6,946 nt of DNA from Paraspadella gotoi (GCA_051294375.1 JBJCIZ010000138.1:1-6946); one strand, 5' to 3'; positions 1 to 6,662 are shown, numbered from the stretch's first letter. The notes: generated by a model from the letters alone, not told the origin. Numbers and translations are program-made.

Positions 1-1
1 C

Positions 2-328
2 GATTTCATTTAAAGTTTTTTGAGCGAACAGATCTCCTCGTTGAATCTTAAACATCGCCCAAAGGACCAGGTTTGTATTTTCGTCGTCGATAAATTGAAT
101 TCTTTTTCTTTCGGCTTCGACGTCCGCCGCAGGGTTTTCTGCCAGTTTCGTCTCGACAGCGGTTTCAATTCTTGCCATCTCCGAGTCGTTGCTTCTGGCT
201 TGTTCGAGGGACTCTTCCGCAGAACTCGGCATCCTTTGATTAACCTCTTGTTTCATTCGAGTTTTTATAACGTAGGTAATTTGGCTATGGCCACGAATCC
301 AATGATCAAAGTCTTGTTCTCTTGACAT
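2..328 (-). CDS. Family A small helical protein (A3), 3' end runs off the window; absent from the ORF track
   Basis: ATG at 328, open to the edge: MSREQDFDHWIRGHSQITYVIKTRMKQEVNQRMPSSAEESLEQARSNDSEMARIETAVETKLAENPAADVEAERKRIQFIDDENTNLVLWAMFKIQRGDLFAQKTLNEI. Aligns with 3195..2761 (RMPSSAEESLE/RLPGCVEECIE; NPAADV/NPTANV; RGDLF/RGCIF). Confidence 0.8.
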   Translation of the reverse strand, partial: MSREQDFDHWIRGHSQITYVIKTRMKQEVNQRMPSSAEESLEQARSNDSEMARIETAVETKLAENPAADVEAERKRIQFIDDENTNLVLWAMFKIQRGDLFAQKTLNEI

Positions 329-438
329 ACTTTGATAAGCTTAATAAATGAATAAACAGATAAATAAACATTTCAATTAATAACGAATGGAATACACCAA
401 ATATAGGCAATTGATGATGATGACCGTTTACAGGTTTG

Positions 439-771
439 TTAAAGAGAATTCTCTCTTTCAAGAGTCTCCATCNNNNNNNNNNGCGCTTCATAAAACCGGA
501 GATAAATGCTAGCGTNNNNNNNNNNGATCTTCAGAGCCTCCCCGATCAGCCGTACGATGTCGGTTGACTTTTTCACTTCCTTTCTGATTTCAGCAATGGT
601 TCGAGGAACTTGTCTTCTGATCCCTTCTTGCTCTAGGTTCCATAGGGCATTTTCCCTGATAGTCAGATCGATGATGGATTTTGTCTTCTCTTGACCCCAT
701 GGCTTTTCGTTGAGCTGCATCCAGTCTCTGTTTAATTGATCTCGAATTTTGTTAAAAGCAATGAAATCCAT
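439..771 (-). CDS. Family B small helical protein (B3), 110 aa, spans two N runs
   Basis: TATTTCAG acceptor ending at 777, 5 nt before the ATG. WxxL-x12-IID-x3-RE has identical spacing to WxxL-x12-ILD-x3-RE in 3632..3291. Confidence 0.8.
   Translation of the reverse strand: MDFIAFNKIRDQLNRDWMQLNEKPWGQEKTKSIIDLTIRENALWNLEQEGIRRQVPRTIAEIRKEVKKSTDIVRLIGEALKIXXXXASIYLRFYEAXXXXMETLERENSL
473..525. other. Two 10-N gaps (473-482, 516-525)
   Basis: Seen directly; they indicate low-quality or masked sequence. Confidence 0.95.
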
Positions 772-852
772 TTTACCTGAAATAAGTTGATTATCAAGAT
801 ATCAAAAAATGTCATTTGCTTTGACTTGACCAAAAAATAAAGAACAGGTAAG

Positions 853-1119
853 TTAGCAAGGTAAATTCATTACAGTTTTGGTTCCGAGTGAAAATATATC
901 TCTTTTGCTCTTCCAGGATTTTCGCCCATCTGGTAAGTTGTGCAATTGTCTTGAATTCTCGTTCATCAGCACCATGGATCCCATACTCTTGAATTCTTCG
1001 GACCAAGTTGTCTTCTCTCTTCTGGATTTCATCCAGTGCGTCTTCAAGATTGGTAGGTAGCCAGAATATCGCGTTTTCTCTGGCATATTTTTTGAAGTTT
1101 CTTCTCTCACTTCAGACAT
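853..1119 (-). pseudogene. Family A copy (A5), frameshifted (pseudogene or sequence error); 3' end uncertain (about 870 to 812)
   Basis: ATTTCAG acceptor at 1141, ATG at 1119. After one frameshift near 1100 it reads NFKKYARENAIFWLPTNLEDALDEIQ...QLTRWAKILEEQKRYIFTR (frame of ORF 812..1006), matching both family A motifs. Confidence 0.65.
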
Positions 1120-1173
1120 TTTTTAATAATTAGTGAGAAGCTGAAATTTAGAAAAAGGTAAGTATAAAAAATT

Positions 1174-1470
1174 TCAACAATACTCAGGAATTCTGTAAAT
1201 TCTGGTGGCGAATATTTTTCCATCTTTTTCCAAAATGTCCGGCCATTTCCTCTACACTTAATGCGATATTGAATATTCTGCTCTGCTTCTGGCATTCGAT
1301 ACTTCGTTTTGTCCTTTCTCCTTTCGTCCCCTTTTCAATTTCTTGTTCTTCTTGAGCCAATTCCTTTTCAAAGCCTCTCAAGTCTTTTAAAGCTCTTTCC
1401 AACGAATCCGGGACCAAATGATCGGCAAAAGTCTCATTTTCTCGAACGTAAAACTCAGAATTTATGCCAT
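1174..1470 (-). pseudogene. Family A copy (A4), multiple frameshifts
   Basis: TTACAG|A|ATG at 1470, followed by GCA TAA in that frame. Another frame gives FYVRENETFADHLVPDSLERALKDLRGFEKELAQ (compare APDCVEKCFDLIKNYSLELKQ). A downstream shifted segment gives RKWPDILEKDGKIFA (compare EKWKKIRLAEGRIFN). Confidence 0.65.
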
Positions 1471-1555
1471 TCTGTAACTAAAGGTAAGTGAATTGATAAT
1501 TGATATAAATCACTAATCCGGAATGTCTAATAAAGTAAGTTTGTTTATATTTTCA

Positions 1556-1895
1556 TTAAACGTTCTTTTGCCTGATCCTGGAGTTCCTTTGCCCGGCTTT
1601 CATTTCATCATAAATTTCACCAAGATCTGGTCTTTTGCGTTTCGCATTCCTTGCCAATTTTTGGCGATCTTCCAATTCTTGAATGTCCTTGTACAGTTCG
1701 GACGCCTCGATGGCTTTATTGCCTCTCATCCTTTCCTCTCTTTTCCTCCTTTTTCTTCCGGATTCGAATTTCATATTCTCCGAAAGACTATGCTCTCAAC
1801 CGCAGAATTTCTTTCAAACGATCTTTGATATTCCTCGCTCTCCCAATCGCGAGCAATCTCATCTTGAATCTCGGAATGGATTTCATTTGAGCCAT
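1556..1895 (-). pseudogene. Family B copy (B4), about 2 frameshifts
   Basis: TATTCAG acceptor at 1913, ATG at 1895. A shifted frame gives IQDEIARDW (compare IRDQLNRDW in B3). ORF 1556..1774 KDIQELEDRQKLARNAKRKRPDLGEIYDE aligns ungapped to B2 KDVRNALGWKKTAVMLKFHQKKKTETYNE. Confidence 0.65.
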
Positions 1896-1944
1896 TGTAG
1901 GCAAGTATAGAGCTGAATAAATTTATTTAAAAATAAGACAATTA

Positions 1945-2298
1945 TTAGTGAAAGAAGGCGAACCGAATAACTTTGAGGTAAGTTTGAGTTATTATTCTCA
2001 TGGCAATTCTTCCATTATCGTCTCGACACTCTTCTTTATTGAAGATGCGCCCTTCAGCAAGTCGAATCTTCTTCCATTTCTCGATGAAGCATATTTCCTC
2101 TTCCAAGAATTTGATTCGTTCGTCTTGACCTTCAGCGACTTCCTGCAATTGCTTCAGTTCCAAGGAATAGTTTTTGATGAGGTCGAAACACTTTTCAACA
2201 CAATCGGGAGCTTCATTGTTCAACTTCTCGTTCTTTTTAACTACGAATGCTCGAAAGTCCTTATATCGATAGGCAAGGTACCCACTGCAGCCTTGCAT
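1945..2298 (-). CDS. Family A protein (A2); C-terminal half of ORF 1945..2685, probably its own cistron starting MQGCSGY
   Basis: ACTTACCT at 2346-2339, a T-rich tract, CCTTCAG (2314) and TATTCAG (2304) acceptors, ATG at 2298. PDCVEKC...IKFLEEE...EKWKKI...GRIFN matches A1 PGCVEEC...IKEFEEE...ERWKQI...GCIFN. Confidence 0.8.
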   Translation of the reverse strand: MQGCSGYLAYRYKDFRAFVVKKNEKLNNEAPDCVEKCFDLIKNYSLELKQLQEVAEGQDERIKFLEEEICFIEKWKKIRLAEGRIFNKEECRDDNGRIAMRIITQTYLKVIRFAFFH

Positions 2299-2351
2299 TG
2301 TTTCTGAATATTCCTGAAGGCAAAACATAAAGTAAACAAGGTAAGTTCGAT

Positions 2352-2698
2352 TTAAGACAGGATTTGAATTTCTTCCTGTTTTCTTCTTTATATATTCATC
2401 AATCATATTGTAAATCTCATTATAAGTTTCAGTCTTTTTCTTCTGGTGAAATTTGAGCATCACAGCCGTCTTCTTCCATCCTAACGCGTTTCGGACGTCC
2501 TTTTCGGCGGCTTCCTTCAGCTTCATTTTGATGTCTTCAGGTTTGTACTTGTGCCATTCTGGATGCCGTTCGACTTTCGCCTCTTGCTCCTTCACATTGA
2601 GGTTCCTTCCGAAATGTTTGTCGTCCATTCTTTCCCTCATTCTCGTAGAGGTGTTCCCATTCTTGAAGGTATCGTGCACCACCAACTGGATCGGACAT
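2352..2698 (-). pseudogene. Family B copy (B2), two apparent +1 nt frameshifts
   Basis: Begins MSDPVGGARYLQEWEHL at ATG 2698 (compare B1 MSDKVVWLWDEWRSL). Shifts into EQEAKVERHPEW...AEKDVRNALGWKKTA (compare EAEANIAYRPEW...AEKAIRLARNWMKTA). A further shift near 2380 gives KQEEIQILS* (TAA 2354-2352; compare KQEMIL). Confidence 0.7.
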
Positions 2699-2760
2699 CT
2701 TTCGAACAGGTAAGTAAGTATTAACTGTGAAGGTAAGTGTTTTAATTAAACGATCGCATC

Positions 2761-3195
2761 TCAAAATGGTAAGTTAATAAATCTTTGATCAATTAAAGAG
2801 TTCCATTGCATTTTATATAATGGAAAGTCCCACAATCTCAACTGCTTCCATTGCAGGGATTTTTTCTTTAAGGATTCAAGACTTTCGCGGTTGAAGATGC
2901 AACCTCGACTCAGATAAATTTGTTTCCATCGCTCGAGAGTCGGAAACTCCTCTTCGAATTCTTTGATCTTTTCAGTGAATTCTTTCACATTTGCCGTTGG
3001 ATTCTTTGCTTTTCTCTTCGCGATGGTCTCACGCAGCTTCTCGATCTTTGTAGTATAACTTTGCGTCAATTCGATGCATTCTTCGACGCATCCTGGGAGA
3101 CGCCTTTCCAGCTCATCCGTCTTCCGGCGTTTGAAGGCACAGAGCTCCAAATGCTCTCTGGAATAGATCCAAGATAATGGAAGTCCGTTCTGCAT
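2761..3195 (-). CDS. Family A protein (A1), 144 aa, likely start MQNGLP
   Basis: Intact ORF; TTTATTTACAG acceptor at 3210 precedes ATG 3195. The upstream 33 codons of ORF 2761..3294 are AT-rich spacer. Clear paralog of A2 and A3. Confidence 0.85.
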   Translation of the reverse strand: MQNGLPLSWIYSREHLELCAFKRRKTDELERRLPGCVEECIELTQSYTTKIEKLRETIAKRKAKNPTANVKEFTEKIKEFEEEFPTLERWKQIYLSRGCIFNRESLESLKKKSLQWKQLRLWDFPLYKMQWNSLIDQRFINLPF

Positions 3196-3290
3196 TGTAT
3201 CCAAGAGAACTGTAAATAAATAAATTAATATTCGAACAATCCAAATCGATATTTTTGACATTGACTTCACATTAGTTTGTATGAATTCAT

Positions 3291-3632
3291 TCATTCATGA
3301 AATGTTTTTAGAATCATCTCTTGCTTTTCGATGCGTTCCTGCATCATTTCAATAATAGTTTCAAAGGTCTTAGCCCTTTTGGGTTTTTCTTTTCTCAGGA
3401 TCTCCGCTGTCTTCATCCAATTCCTGGCAAGACGAATTGCCTTTTCTGCTTCATCTTCAGGACCTTTGTTCTCTCCTTGGAGGATCTTTTTCACCCACTC
3501 CGGTCTGTAGGCTATATTTGCTTCTGCTTCTCGGAGAATCACGTCCAGGATCTTCCTGTTCCTGTTTTCGGTCTCTTTCTGCAGCTTAAGACTTCTCCAT
3601 TCGTCCCATAGCCAAACGACTTTGTCAGACAT
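3291..3632 (-). CDS. Family B protein (B1), 113 aa
   Basis: Intact K/E-rich ORF preceded by ATACTTACCTTCAG...TATTTAGCAAATG; paralogous to B2, B3 and B4. Confidence 0.85.
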   Translation of the reverse strand: MSDKVVWLWDEWRSLKLQKETENRNRKILDVILREAEANIAYRPEWVKKILQGENKGPEDEAEKAIRLARNWMKTAEILRKEKPKRAKTFETIIEMMQERIEKQEMILKTFHE

Positions 3633-3719
3633 TTGCTAAATAAATCCTGAAGGTAAGTATATTGAAAATAATAACTTTGAATTGCAATAAAATTGTAGTG
3701 ATAAATGAACAATCACTGA

Positions 3720-3915
3720 TCAGTTTTTTTCCGTTTTTCGTGTAGAGTTTTTTGTCTCTTGATCTGGGATGGGTGCCTGGATCATCATCTTTTTACTTTC
3801 TAGTAAGATCAAGGATCGCTTTGCGCTTGCCTTTTCAGGATCGGAATATGAAACTCCATGGGTTTCGCCATAACAGATGCCATTTGCCAAACATATAGCC
3901 GCTAAATGAAGTCAT
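3720..3915 (-). pseudogene. Probable short cistron, frame-disrupted, family unassigned
   Basis: TTATTCAG|GAAAATG at 3915 and coding-like composition between two AT-rich spacers. The ATG frame stops after 26 aa; another frame stays open to TGA at 3722-3720 (...DPEKASAKRSLILLESKKMMIQAPIPDQETKNSTRKTEKN). Confidence 0.4.
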
Positions 3916-4005
3916 TTTCCTGAATAATCAAGAATAATTAATAATAACAGGATTCAATTTCAATGGTTTGACAGCCAATTGAACAAATATTTGATGAGAT
4001 AATGT

Positions 4006-4329
4006 TTAAAATGTTTTCCTTTTGCGATATAACGTCTGTTTTGTTACTGGTTTTGAGGCGCGGTGAACAAAGTCTCGAATTACTGCGTAAATGTCTTCGA
4101 GAGCCTCTCGTTGCATGTCAGCGTATTTTTCCATTGACGCTGTAGGAATACTGCCCATGGGAAGATTCTGTATCGTCCTCCTGTCCACGGTTTCGTTCAG
4201 CTTCTTTTCCGTCCGTTCTTTCCAGCGCCCGTACTCCATCACAAATTCTTCTTTGAAGGGATCTGGGATGTGTTCGAGTAGAATTCTCATGTGGAGTTCT
4301 CCCTCGATTTCAATATAGTTTCCGGACAT
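4006..4329 (-). CDS. Family C protein (C2), 107 aa, start MSGNYIEI
   Basis: Intact ORF; ACTTACCTTTTTTAG upstream of ATG 4329; paralog at 4646..4407; basic C-terminus RKRK. Confidence 0.85.
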   Translation of the reverse strand: MSGNYIEIEGELHMRILLEHIPDPFKEEFVMEYGRWKERTEKKLNETVDRRTIQNLPMGSIPTASMEKYADMQREALEDIYAVIRDFVHRASKPVTKQTLYRKRKTF

Positions 4330-4406
4330 TTTGAATGTGAATAACAAACTAAAAAAGGTAAGTAAATCAAACAATTCGTACACAAAGTTTTATGAATAAT
4401 TTCGTT

Positions 4407-4646
4407 TTACTTCTCGGCTCTGTCTCGTAAGTCAATGATAATCTTTTTTAACATTTCTCGCCTCTTTTTCATGGCATGTTGCATATATAAGTTCTTTGCT
4501 TATTCTGATAAGTTCAACGATTCGATTTGATCCATTTTGAGCATCGTTTCGTCGTACCAATGATTGTATCTCTCGTGAAACTCCGCTAAGTGTTCCATTG
4601 GAACGAGATCCATCATCCTATTGAACAGGACTCGCCGAGATGACAT
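4407..4646 (-). pseudogene. Family C copy (C1) with one in-frame TAA at 4502-4500; absent from the ORF track
   Basis: MSSRRVLFNRMMDLVPMEHLAEFHERYNHWYDETMLKMDQIESLNLSE*AKNLYMQHAMKKRREMLKKIIIDLRDRAEK*. Shares P-x5-EF-x3-Y-x2-W-x3-T-x2-K and RExLxxI-x4-RD with C2. TTTATAG acceptor near 4665. Confidence 0.75.
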
Positions 4647-4968
4647 GATCCCAAAGTTGATTCTCTATAAAGAAATGTTTATTATTATTCCATTGCCATC
4701 AGGTAAGTATTTGTATTGAAATATTGACTTTATTAATTCTTTTCCTCTGCAGGATCGTTACCAGAATTTCGTCGAATTTTCTTAATGTTGAGCAAGTGTC
4801 CGGAAATCCAATAGATGCTTAAAGTTCTTGTATCGCCGGAAGCTTAAAGGTAGGTTTGCAAGTTTATTGAAAACAATTCAAAACAACTTAAAACAATGCA
4901 AGAGATCAAAACGCCAGTCTCCCGCCTAAATTTTGTGCCATAATGCGAATCTTATGAGAAATAAATTC

Positions 4969-5166
4969 TCATGGAGTTTTGCAGTAAGTGTCTGCTGACA
5001 TGATATGAGACGGAATGATGCGTCCGATCTCCGTCTCTGAAAGAATCGTAGCTAAACGACGTCGGTAAAGGTTTACTTCAAAAGAGATTTCGATTGAAGA
5101 TTCCGGCGGACGCGTGATTGGCGGCGTCGGCGGCGCCTGATAATTTGAATCGGATTTCTTTTCCAT
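4969..5166 (-). CDS. Hypothetical Pro-containing ORF, possibly the 3' part of a longer disrupted gene
   Basis: 65-aa ORF in GC-richer sequence; no clear acceptor before the ATG; faint resemblance of RPPESSIEISF to RPSSPGTVVEISW in the upstream gene. Confidence 0.3.
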   Translation of the reverse strand: MEKKSDSNYQAPPTPPITRPPESSIEISFEVNLYRRRLATILSETEIGRIIPSHIMSADTYCKTP

Positions 5167-5219
5167 TCCTTTGCGACTTCACCGAACTTGGTACTAGCGA
5201 TAATTCTGTCCGAGCTTGA

Positions 5220-5264
5220 TACAAGTGGTGACTCTGTCCAAATCCACTACAAGTGGCAACTCTG
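5220..5264. repeat. Short direct repeat, 17 nt x2, period 28
   Basis: tacaagtggtgactctg (5220-5236) and tacaagtggcaactctg (5248-5264), 15/17 identical. Confidence 0.8.
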
Positions 5265-5321
5265 GCTGAATCCGTTGGTACGACGGTCTCTTCGTACTTG
5301 GCTTTGTGGATTCCGTGGACA

Positions 5322-5478
5322 CCTTATTTTACGAAGAGCGACGGTTCCTGATCTGTAACGATAAAGCTTCTCAACATCTCCAATGGCATCAAAGTTTGAG
5401 GATAGTCTTAATAATTAGTTGCTTGCGAGAAGCTTTACCTCCGGTCGATTTAGATGCGGTTTGTTAGGTGGAAGCCAT
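5322..5478 (-). pseudogene. H3: Degenerate histone H3 N-terminal fragment (about residues 1-52)
   Basis: MAST*QTASKSTGGKASRKQLIIKTILKL, frameshift, DAIGDVEKLYRYRSGTVALRKIR, versus canonical [53 protein letters not shown]. No histone fold follows. Confidence 0.9.
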
Positions 5479-5627
5479 GGCGAATAGTGGGTGAAGTCTG
5501 CAGTCTGTCTAATATATCTGTCAATCAGGTTAAGACAACATTAGCAATGTTTGACTTCATTATAAAAGAAAATACGGTAACAAAGTTCGGGACACACGAC
5601 TTTTTTTAAAAAAAAAAGGAGGAACGC

Positions 5628-6662
5628 TCAATTTGGCTGTTGGGGAAGCCATCCCAATCGCTCCTTCACTGGGCGACGGCGCCTGTTCTCCTCGGCGTTA
5701 GGACGTTGGCTTGATAAACTCTCGCGTAGATCACGGACCGCCTCGCCCACGCTCTTCGCGATGTTGAAATCGTGCGGCATCTCGCGCCTTGTCACCGTCA
5801 CGCGTGGATGCGTTTCAAATACGACTTCCTGTTTAATAGCATTTTTTATATAATAAATTTGTTTGTCAGCATCCTTCCTATAATAAATTCGGTTCTTACG
5901 CAATCGGAGCTGTCGCTATCAACGGCTAACGGTGGGTAGCCGAAATAGTCACGGACCGGCGTTCCCACTTCAGTCGAAGGCGAGGAAGGTGGGGACGGTG
6001 AAGGGGCGCGGATCCTTTGCGCCATGAACGGACGACGAACCGAGGCGTTTTGTTCGTCGTCCGGTTGAGAAACCGGGGTTTCCGTCGCCGGAGCGGACGG
6101 CGGCATAATGCGGATCCTGTGTGCCATGAACGGGCGACGAACCGGGAAATCCTGCTCGTCGTTAGGTCGAGAGACCGGGGTTTCCGTTTCCGGCGCAGAC
6201 GGCGGCATCATGCGGATCGGACGACGAACCGAGGCGTCCTGCTCGCCGCTAGGTCGAGAGACAGGGACTTCCGTTCCTGGTGGCGGTGGTTCCACATCGA
6301 CCCATGAAATTTCAACGACTGTTCCTGGCGACGATGGTCGTGCGTTGCTCCGAACGGTTGGATCGTCTGTCCCCGGCGGCGCTGGCTCGTTCTTTGAGAG
6401 AGGTGCGACTCTCGCCGTTGGTTTGGAACAAGTGGCCGCGGCAATCTCTCTTGCCCGCTTTGACGCGTCGTCCTGAAGTGGACAATTAAACTTAACGAGA
6501 TCGTGAAAGCAAATATATTTAAGAGGCAAAAACTCTCTCTTTCTCGCTTGATAGAATTATCGTTACATGATTGGTTGGAATCAACCGATCAAAGATATAC
6601 TAATTTGATCAACCGGCTAGCTCGATAATGATTATTTCCTTTATTTTATTTACCGATGACAT
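5628..6662 (-). CDS. Pro/Arg/Ser-rich repeat protein; coding exons 6662-6654 and 6472-5628, with an apparent frameshift near 5900
   Basis: ATG TCA TCG|GTAAAT donor (6653) and CACTTCAG|GAC acceptor (6473) join in frame as MSS-DDASKRARE. ORFs 5846..6529 and 5628..5903 overlap and look like one shifted CDS. High GC. Confidence 0.65.
6008..6290 (-). repeat. Coding tandem repeat, about 3 units (102, 102 and about 87 nt)
   Basis: GCGGATC anchors at 6008, 6110 and 6212; peptide unit PPSAPxTETPVSRPxDEQDxxVRRP(FMAxR)IR. Confidence 0.9.

Follow-up and report, generated by a model that had tools for sequence, protein, structure and literature searches.

How a row of very small genes, packed on one strand with short spacers between them, could be turned into separate messenger RNAs (mRNAs), and why two kinds of gene should alternate along it, are the questions raised by a stretch of 6,946 nucleotides from Paraspadella gotoi (GCA_051294375.1 JBJCIZ010000138.1:1-6946), hereafter called the window. 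The stretch holds a same-strand row of about 12 tiny, apparently intron-less genes from two families that are orphans in the databases, A and B, set in mostly alternating B-A order. The spacers in front of most of these genes carry a short word, ACTTACC, whose 8-mer form ACTTACCT we take to be the 5' end of U1 small nuclear RNA (snRNA). The reading put forward here, to which we would give slightly less than an even chance, is that the array is expressed as one operon-type RNA and cut into single-gene mRNAs by spliced-leader trans-splicing, with the word serving as an element like the Ur element of nematodes. How the spliced-leader ribonucleoprotein finds its acceptor is described as an open question in a published account (PMC11229312).

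The array and its two gene families

On the minus strand, which carries the A and B genes, their order from 5' to 3' is B1-A1-B2-A2-B4-A4-A5-B3-A3. The order B-A-B-A-B-A-A-B-A, with an A after each B, which an earlier sequence-only reading of this DNA had given, was thus borne out, but on the minus strand; the bounds 1 to 3,632 that it had assigned hold for the nine A and B units, while the array itself extends further upstream, through X3, X2 and X1, up to 4646. All sizeable paralogous open reading frames (ORFs) of 1-4700 are on the minus strand, and the spacers from stop codon to ATG measure 53-128 nt at 11 junctions, which is within the 50-200 nt expected of an operon. The small genes are listed below in 5' to 3' order.

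4646-4407, minus strand: X1, 79 amino acids after contig indels; paralogue of X2
4329-4044, minus strand: X2, 94 amino acids after contig indels
about 3915-3720, minus strand: X3, candidate small gene lying between X2 and B1; ORF 3720-3890; contigs variable there
3632-3291, minus strand: B1, 113 amino acids; intact in window and contigs; similar to B2 (E=1e-10)
3195-2813, minus strand: A1, 127 amino acids after a one-base insertion at 2871 in the contigs; start at ATG 3195
2698-2352, minus strand: B2, 114 amino acids after contig indels at 2628 and 2379; fused to A2 in the raw window
2298-1998, minus strand: A2, 99 amino acids after contig indels at 2234, 2228 and 2031
1895-1545, minus strand: B4, 117 amino acids after six contig indels (1874, 1837, 1815, 1779, 1741, 1601)
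1477-1184, minus strand: A4, an open frame of 97 codons; TTA in the window at the position of the A1 and A2 ATG
1119-853, minus strand: A5, 87 amino acids after contig indels at 1103 (2 nt) and 903; TAA stop overlaps the next ACTTACC
771-439, minus strand: B3, about 110 codons; open over 771-526, followed by two 10-nt N masks (516-525, 473-482)
328-2, minus strand: A3, at least 109 amino acids; open to the window end, which cuts the gene

As indicated in the list, most of these proteins were read after repair of the window from public contigs. The contigs came from nine public runs of three studies, each run containing at least half of the stretch's sampled words. Compared with them, the window carries indels of 1-3 nt, about one per 100 nt and often at homopolymers (526-4742), which break the frames; the contigs from the three studies concur on these indels, and the window probably represents an unpolished long-read assembly or a degenerate haplotype. 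When the contig indels were applied by script, separate intact ORFs of 79-127 amino acids were obtained for eight of the 12 small genes (X1, X2, B1, A1, B2, A2, B4 and A5), and the C-termini of A1, A2 and A5 became alignable, which provides an internal check. The indel list is complete for 1530-2760, where its 12 events and 15 letters equal the gap count of the single contig that spans this region, and the listed indels also match the contig gap counts for 526-941, 922-1118, 2718-3632, 3882-4392 and 4363-4742. Around A4, contigs over 1090-1694 carry 15 gap letters, three of which are placed, and the A4 frame is the window's own. Over 2718-3632 the contig of public run X1 (a run, not the gene of that name) differs from the window by one letter and one gap, the gap lying outside B1. 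B4 is broken across three frames in the raw window, and the C-terminal third of B3 is unreadable through the N runs at 473-482 and 516-525. With about one indel per 100 nt in the window, a raw ORF reading of the stretch is misleading; an example is the 246-residue ORF at 1945-2685, an artefact that joins B2 and A2 in a false fusion and that the contig indels separate.

The start of A1 was taken at ATG 3195, since A2 and A4 have no counterpart of the in-frame upstream extension seen in A1 (3195-3294, minus strand); the ATG of this extension overlaps the B1 stop codon (ATGA), and the extension encodes a hydrophobic stretch. In the start region of A4 (1465-1477, minus strand) a two-codon mini-ORF, ATG-GCA-TAA, overlaps out of frame. 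A4 itself, having no ATG, could be a dead copy, a gene with a non-AUG start or an assembly error. We also considered whether the row could be one long gene with the spacers as introns; this was rejected, for every unit has an ATG and a stop codon to itself, and splicing from the sole GT close to the B2 stop would shift the frame.

By sequence comparison A and B are separate paralogue families. Blastp within the window linked A1 with A2 (4e-14), A1 with A3 (1e-11), A4 with A5 (3e-3) and A2 with A4 (0.047) in family A, and B1 with B2 in family B, at the E value listed above. Profile and shuffle tests were made on the indel-corrected proteins. An A1-A3 profile gave 10.5 bits for A4 and 6.6 bits for A5, and none of 300 composition-preserving shuffles reached either value; a B1+B2 profile scored B4 at 13.0 bits (0/300 shuffles) and B3 at 5.0 bits (11/300). 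Smith-Waterman z scores ranged from 2 to 19 within family A (19 for A1-A2, 15 for A3-A1), while within family B they were 9-11 for B1-B2, about 4 for B1-B4, 3.3-3.5 for B3-B4, 0.7-0.8 for B1-B3 and -0.2 for B2-B3; between the two families they lay between -1.6 and 2.1. These comparisons support family A for all five of its members, whereas in family B the membership of B1 and B2 is secure, that of B4 has moderate support and that of B3, which is tied to the family mainly via B4, has weak support. The paralogues have diverged to 20-35% identity. Three residues, P, E and W, are invariant in the alignment of family A, and a (D/E)W near residue 12-17 is common to all four B proteins by eye. Among the plus-frame similarities of the A/B gene region the best (1.5e-05) is far weaker than that in the minus frames (4e-14), which argues for coding on the minus strand; coding on the plus strand was rejected on the same ground.

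Upstream of the A/B units, X1 and X2 resemble each other with z 4.4-4.9 (0/200 shuffles). They have in common a P...EF...W-type stretch, faintly resemble B2 and A1 (z about 3) and may represent a third, older layer of the array's stock.

Open frames and B-A adjacency have been kept at 20-35% identity in two families with no detectable relatives among 1.84 billion representative proteins, and for this reason A and B would make a tractable case of lineage-restricted partner genes, born and amplified in place.

A U1-like word in the spacers

ACTTACC occurs 12 times in the window, in every case on the coding (minus) strand, against 0.30 copies expected, and a count of 12 was reached by none of 200 shuffles. 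Eleven copies are in spacers and one is inside A5. The 8-mer ACTTACCT has 10 exact copies, again on the coding strand only and all contained in about 1.1 kb of spacer, and its exact complement is AGGTAAGT, the consensus 5' splice site. With its flanks, the copy at 4708 reads ATACTTACCTG, which is likewise presumed to be the 5' end of U1 snRNA. The word is present in the upstream spacer of nine of the 12 genes, at the following positions.

4701-4708, minus strand: ACTTACCT, upstream of X1; with flanks ATACTTACCTG
4356-4363, minus strand: ACTTACCT, X1-X2 spacer
3651-3658, minus strand: ACTTACCT, X3-B1 spacer; TTCAG follows directly
2768-2774, 2732-2738 and 2709-2715, minus strand: three copies of ACTTACC, A1-B2 spacer (2708-2774), plus one ACTTACT
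2339-2346, minus strand: ACTTACCT, B2-A2 spacer, 5 nt past the B2 stop
1976-1983, minus strand: ACTTACCT, A2-B4 spacer; variant ACTTGCCT at 1899-1906
1482-1489, minus strand: ACTTACCT, B4-A4 spacer; variant ACTTACTT at 1533-1540
1156-1163, minus strand: ACTTACCT, A4-A5 spacer
846-853, minus strand: ACTTACCT, A5-B3 spacer; overlaps the A5 stop codon

The spacer word (846-4708, minus strand), absent from the sequence-only reading, is a stronger signal than the pairing of the genes.

Besides the word, no DNA repeat common to the paralogous units was found, which suggests that the word was kept while the remaining sequence diverged. The next AG after it comes at 3-35 nt (median about 6), usually past pyrimidines, and the ATG follows such a pyrimidine-rich AG by 0-26 nt; the word itself lies 10-81 nt upstream of the ATGs; several stop codons abut it on the other side. 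Six of the 10 exact copies of ACTTACCT read TACCTT and the others TACCTG or TACCTC. When the 10 upstream segments were folded, six had the word unpaired in the minimum-energy structure, which suggests that it would often be free to pair. Three of the four spacer variants keep the pairing through wobble, a proportion that loses significance when transition bias is taken into account. No exact AGGTAAGT was found on the minus strand of the window. An acceptor score did not separate the gene ATGs from other minus-strand ATGs, with a background tally that was partly faulty.

A possible operon-type transcript resolved by trans-splicing

We argued that same-strand intron-less genes, short spacers, an AG before the ATG and a donor-complementary word before that AG would together fit an operon whose transcript is resolved by trans-splicing. 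In such a scheme the whole minus-strand array would be transcribed as one long RNA, whose U1-like words would, as it is being made, base-pair with a spliced-leader RNA at the donor site of the latter. This pairing would bring the leader donor to the pyrimidine-rich AG situated 3-35 nt downstream and 0-26 nt before the ATG. Growth of the array would be due in part to a B-A unit duplicated in tandem (pairs 1 and 2) and in part to duplication of single genes (A4/A5, X1/X2), and B and A proteins from neighbouring cistrons might act together, perhaps, by conjecture, in a mixed helical bundle. A more specific form of the idea, which we regard as possible but on the unlikely side, is that each cistron carries a copy of the U1 5' end before its acceptor, so that the pre-mRNA plays the part of the snRNA and captures the leader donor, the genes so served being co-duplicated orphan B-A partners. 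If the spacer word does recruit the spliced leader by pairing, the array would provide a minimal recruiting element, defined by its sequence, in ten to eleven natural copies.

Several observations weigh against this reading. The word is missing from the spacers before X3, A1 and A3, one ACTTACC copy is within the coding sequence of A5, and A4 has no ATG in the window. Pyrimidine-rich AGs are frequent on the minus strand, and for this reason our acceptor calls are descriptive only. As for the nematode Ur element, one account describes it as a TAYYTT motif that SL2 trans-splicing needs and that precedes the splice site by about 50 nt (PMC7668243); the word of the array is 3-35 nt from the next AG and not about 50 nt, and no stem-loop was detected before it, as none of the 10 segments reached z <= -2 (range -1.30 to +1.46). 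The contigs of the public runs contain no joints, and no matching run is recorded as RNA; run X8, guessed to be RNA, gave the same contigs as the DNA run X9. Spliced-leader trans-splicing is assumed for this locus, and binding of B to A would be a conjecture from adjacency.

Duplication and coupling of B and A

The sequence-only reading had proposed that a coupled B-A pair was amplified as a unit. For pairs 1 and 2 the comparisons support duplication of the B-A unit: in both families the members of these pairs are closer to each other than to any other gene (A1-A2 z 19, B1-B2 z 9-11). Pair 3 contradicts it, for A3 is near A1 (z 15) and B3 has no detectable likeness to B1 and B2, and A5 is without a B partner; A4/A5 and X1/X2 look like single-gene duplications. 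Congruence of A and B trees had been suggested as a check. In maximum-likelihood trees pairs 1 and 2 did group in both families, (A4,A5) separating from (A1,A2,A3) with support 89/94 and (B1,B2) from (B3,B4) with support 49/31; A3, on the other hand, went with A1 and A2, and B3 weakly with B4. With as many as 3-4 changes per column on their end branches the trees are saturated, and this, with the B support of 49/31, is too weak a basis for a verdict on congruence either way.

That B and A form a coupled pair is plausible, the idea deriving from their adjacency and from pairs 1 and 2 alone. B adjoins A in all four cases; in a random ordering of four B and five A genes every B would be followed by an A in five of 126 orders (0.04). 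The alternative is that B and A are no functional couple and that the alternation was simply left behind when neighbouring but unrelated orphan genes, some perhaps now decaying, underwent one or two segmental duplications. We judge this a live possibility, though somewhat less likely than not. Matching relatedness in pairs 1 and 2 only, the incongruent pair 3 and the unpaired A5 would all agree with it, as would a chance probability of the order that is only 0.04, an A4 with no ATG in the window, and X1/X2, which show that single genes also duplicated here. Against it, eight genes are intact in the contigs of three studies despite 20-35% paralogue identity, and the B-A adjacency was kept in all four cases. 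The toxin-antidote or effector-regulator roles that had been offered for the pair gained no support, with no family match of any kind.

Other explanations of the word

Each small gene might instead be its own transcription unit, with ACTTACC(T) after A/T-rich sequence as a core promoter or initiator and mRNAs starting near it with short leaders. The position of the word, 10-81 nt upstream of the ATGs and after A/T-rich stretches, would suit a promoter, as would its strand specificity and its confinement to spacers, and private promoter words are known before packed genes in compact genomes and viruses. The distance from word to ATG is nevertheless variable over that range, and one spacer holds three copies; moreover, the stop codon of the preceding gene touches or overlaps the word, so that a terminator would have no room, and the identity of 9-11 nt with the U1 5' end would become a coincidence. 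We consider a promoter improbable.

About equally improbable is that ACTTACC-(Y)n-AG combines branch point and 3' splice site in one module, which would act in cis on introns in 5' untranslated regions or in alternative splicing from a shared upstream leader exon to each acceptor. CTTAC fits the loose branch-site consensus yUnAy, an AG comes within 3-8 nt after the word in seven of the 11 spacer copies, and a leader exon in cis could just as well supply the donor with which the word pairs. However, the absence of an exact AGGTAAGT from the minus strand of the window speaks against such splicing in cis, near-matches being found at the histone H3-like gene upstream of the array; a branch A at 7-10 nt from the AG would be unusually close, and the apparent introns of the H3-like neighbour are by eye without the word.

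That the words function on the plus strand, as real 5' splice sites (AGGTAAGT) in a transcript that is antisense and probably non-coding, and that their place in the spacers is secondary, is very improbable: the plus strand does carry ten exact consensus donors, and plausible short introns can be drawn by eye after some of them, but at the one site checked no plus frame stays open to the donor past the B1 antisense ORFs 3321-3611, 3331-3510 and 3437-3589, the plus-frame paralogue similarity is far weaker as given above, and the variants ACTTACTT (twice) and ACTTGCCT, the latter a GC donor on the plus strand, would keep the pairing of the minus-strand RNA through G-U, which with three variants is a hint only.

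Comparison with known systems

Pairing of the Ur element with the SL2 donor was reportedly proposed by Lasda et al. 2010, and a short stem-loop is said there to stand just before the Ur motif. Like nematode SL2 operons, the array keeps to one strand, with spacers of about 50-130 nt, and its word, as is reported for Ur, is complementary to a 5' splice site. In the more specific form of the trans-splicing reading, which we regard as on the unlikely side, the role reversal proposed for the Ur element would have a natural and nearly perfect counterpart in the U1-like word. A word containing TACCTT precedes a pyrimidine-rich AG near the ATG, and TACCTT is one form of TAYYTT as Ur is presented in the account cited above (PMC7668243). 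Compared with the nematode element, the word is closer to its AG and has no stem-loop ahead of it; it is also longer and nearly invariant, at 8-11 nt. Furthermore, the genes of the array, unlike those of nematode operons, are tiny intron-less paralogues, and trans-splicing is here inferred from sequence.

The EsxB/EsxA (WXG100) genes of Gram-positive bacteria and mycobacteria offer another parallel, with adjacent genes for helical proteins of about 100 residues, repeated as pairs and of low paralogue identity. The array is in contrast eukaryotic, with no WXG turn by eye and no secretion system; against Pfam WXG100_2, B1 scored 16.5 bits where the cut-off is 27, and one of the four B members matched. 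Caenorhabditis toxin-antidote pairs (peel-1/zeel-1 and sup-35/pha-1) are likewise tightly linked, fast-evolving and lineage-restricted, but A and B have no resemblance to them in sequence or fold and no sign of toxicity, and the A/B pair occurs four times in one apparent transcription unit. A1 is similar in size to the three-helix bundle of tubulin-binding cofactor A (TBCA) and is also predicted to be a three-helix bundle, and the best Foldseek row for A1 was 1h7c (E=0.72). With the TBCA family of Pfam, A4 gave E=0.033 and 14.9 bits against a cut-off of 30.3, none of the five family-A members matched in the member-wide scan, and TBCA was not retrieved when the family-A profile was run against PDB sequences at E<=10.

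Protein models and homologue searches

AlphaFold2, run with small paralogue alignments, modelled A1 as a three-helix bundle with a predicted local distance difference test score (pLDDT) of 82.8 and B1 as all-helical (pLDDT 78.3); the models look like generic helical bundles. The A and B proteins have many charged residues, isoelectric points of 4.9-9.8 and, by eye, polar N-termini.

Pfam returned no family that was above threshold or recurred across the A and B members; TBCA, WXG100, apolipophorin-III and GCN4-type coiled coils were considered and rejected, being all below threshold and not recurring across members. Foldseek found nothing in PDB at E<=1e-3 for the A1 and B1 models, and the A and B sequence profiles retrieved coiled-coil-type noise only from PDB chains. 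No relative was obtained by a word search confined to near lengths (B2+A2 read-through, B1 and the B alignment), by HMMER with the A profile against 1.84 billion representatives or by ESM Atlas with B1. Exact 30-mers had no match in viral and metagenome contigs, nor was there any match in phage and plasmid collections; related-locus scans with A1 in metagenome contigs and with B1 in viral contigs found none, and Rfam gave a single sub-threshold row (24.9 bits against 60).

The upstream neighbour and the genomic setting

A further gene stands upstream of the array on the same strand.

4970-6662, minus strand: H3-like gene; tail repeated and rich in proline; GT-AG introns apparent by eye; frames broken in the window

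When 5250-5414 (55 amino acids) was compared with PDB chains by phmmer, 132 distinct sequences were retrieved at E<=10, and the 60 best of these, as listed, were all histone H3 or H3/CENP-A constructs, the best with E=0.002 over H3 residues 30-56. Pfam detected no histone domain in the six H3-like pieces, in which the frames are broken. The proline-rich N-terminal tail contains a 102-nt tandem repeat (6008-6218), and the gene possibly specifies a centromeric-type histone. With this H3-like gene upstream on the same strand, the locus is most likely nuclear eukaryotic DNA.

Over 526-6550, the word depth of the small-gene array was about 106-164 in run X1, compared with 35.7 for the contig over the H3-like region, and in run X5 it was 31.7 for the array and 15.8 for the H3-like region. 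Many contigs that are 90-95% alike also map on the array, and together with its depth they may represent extra copies or divergent haplotypes.

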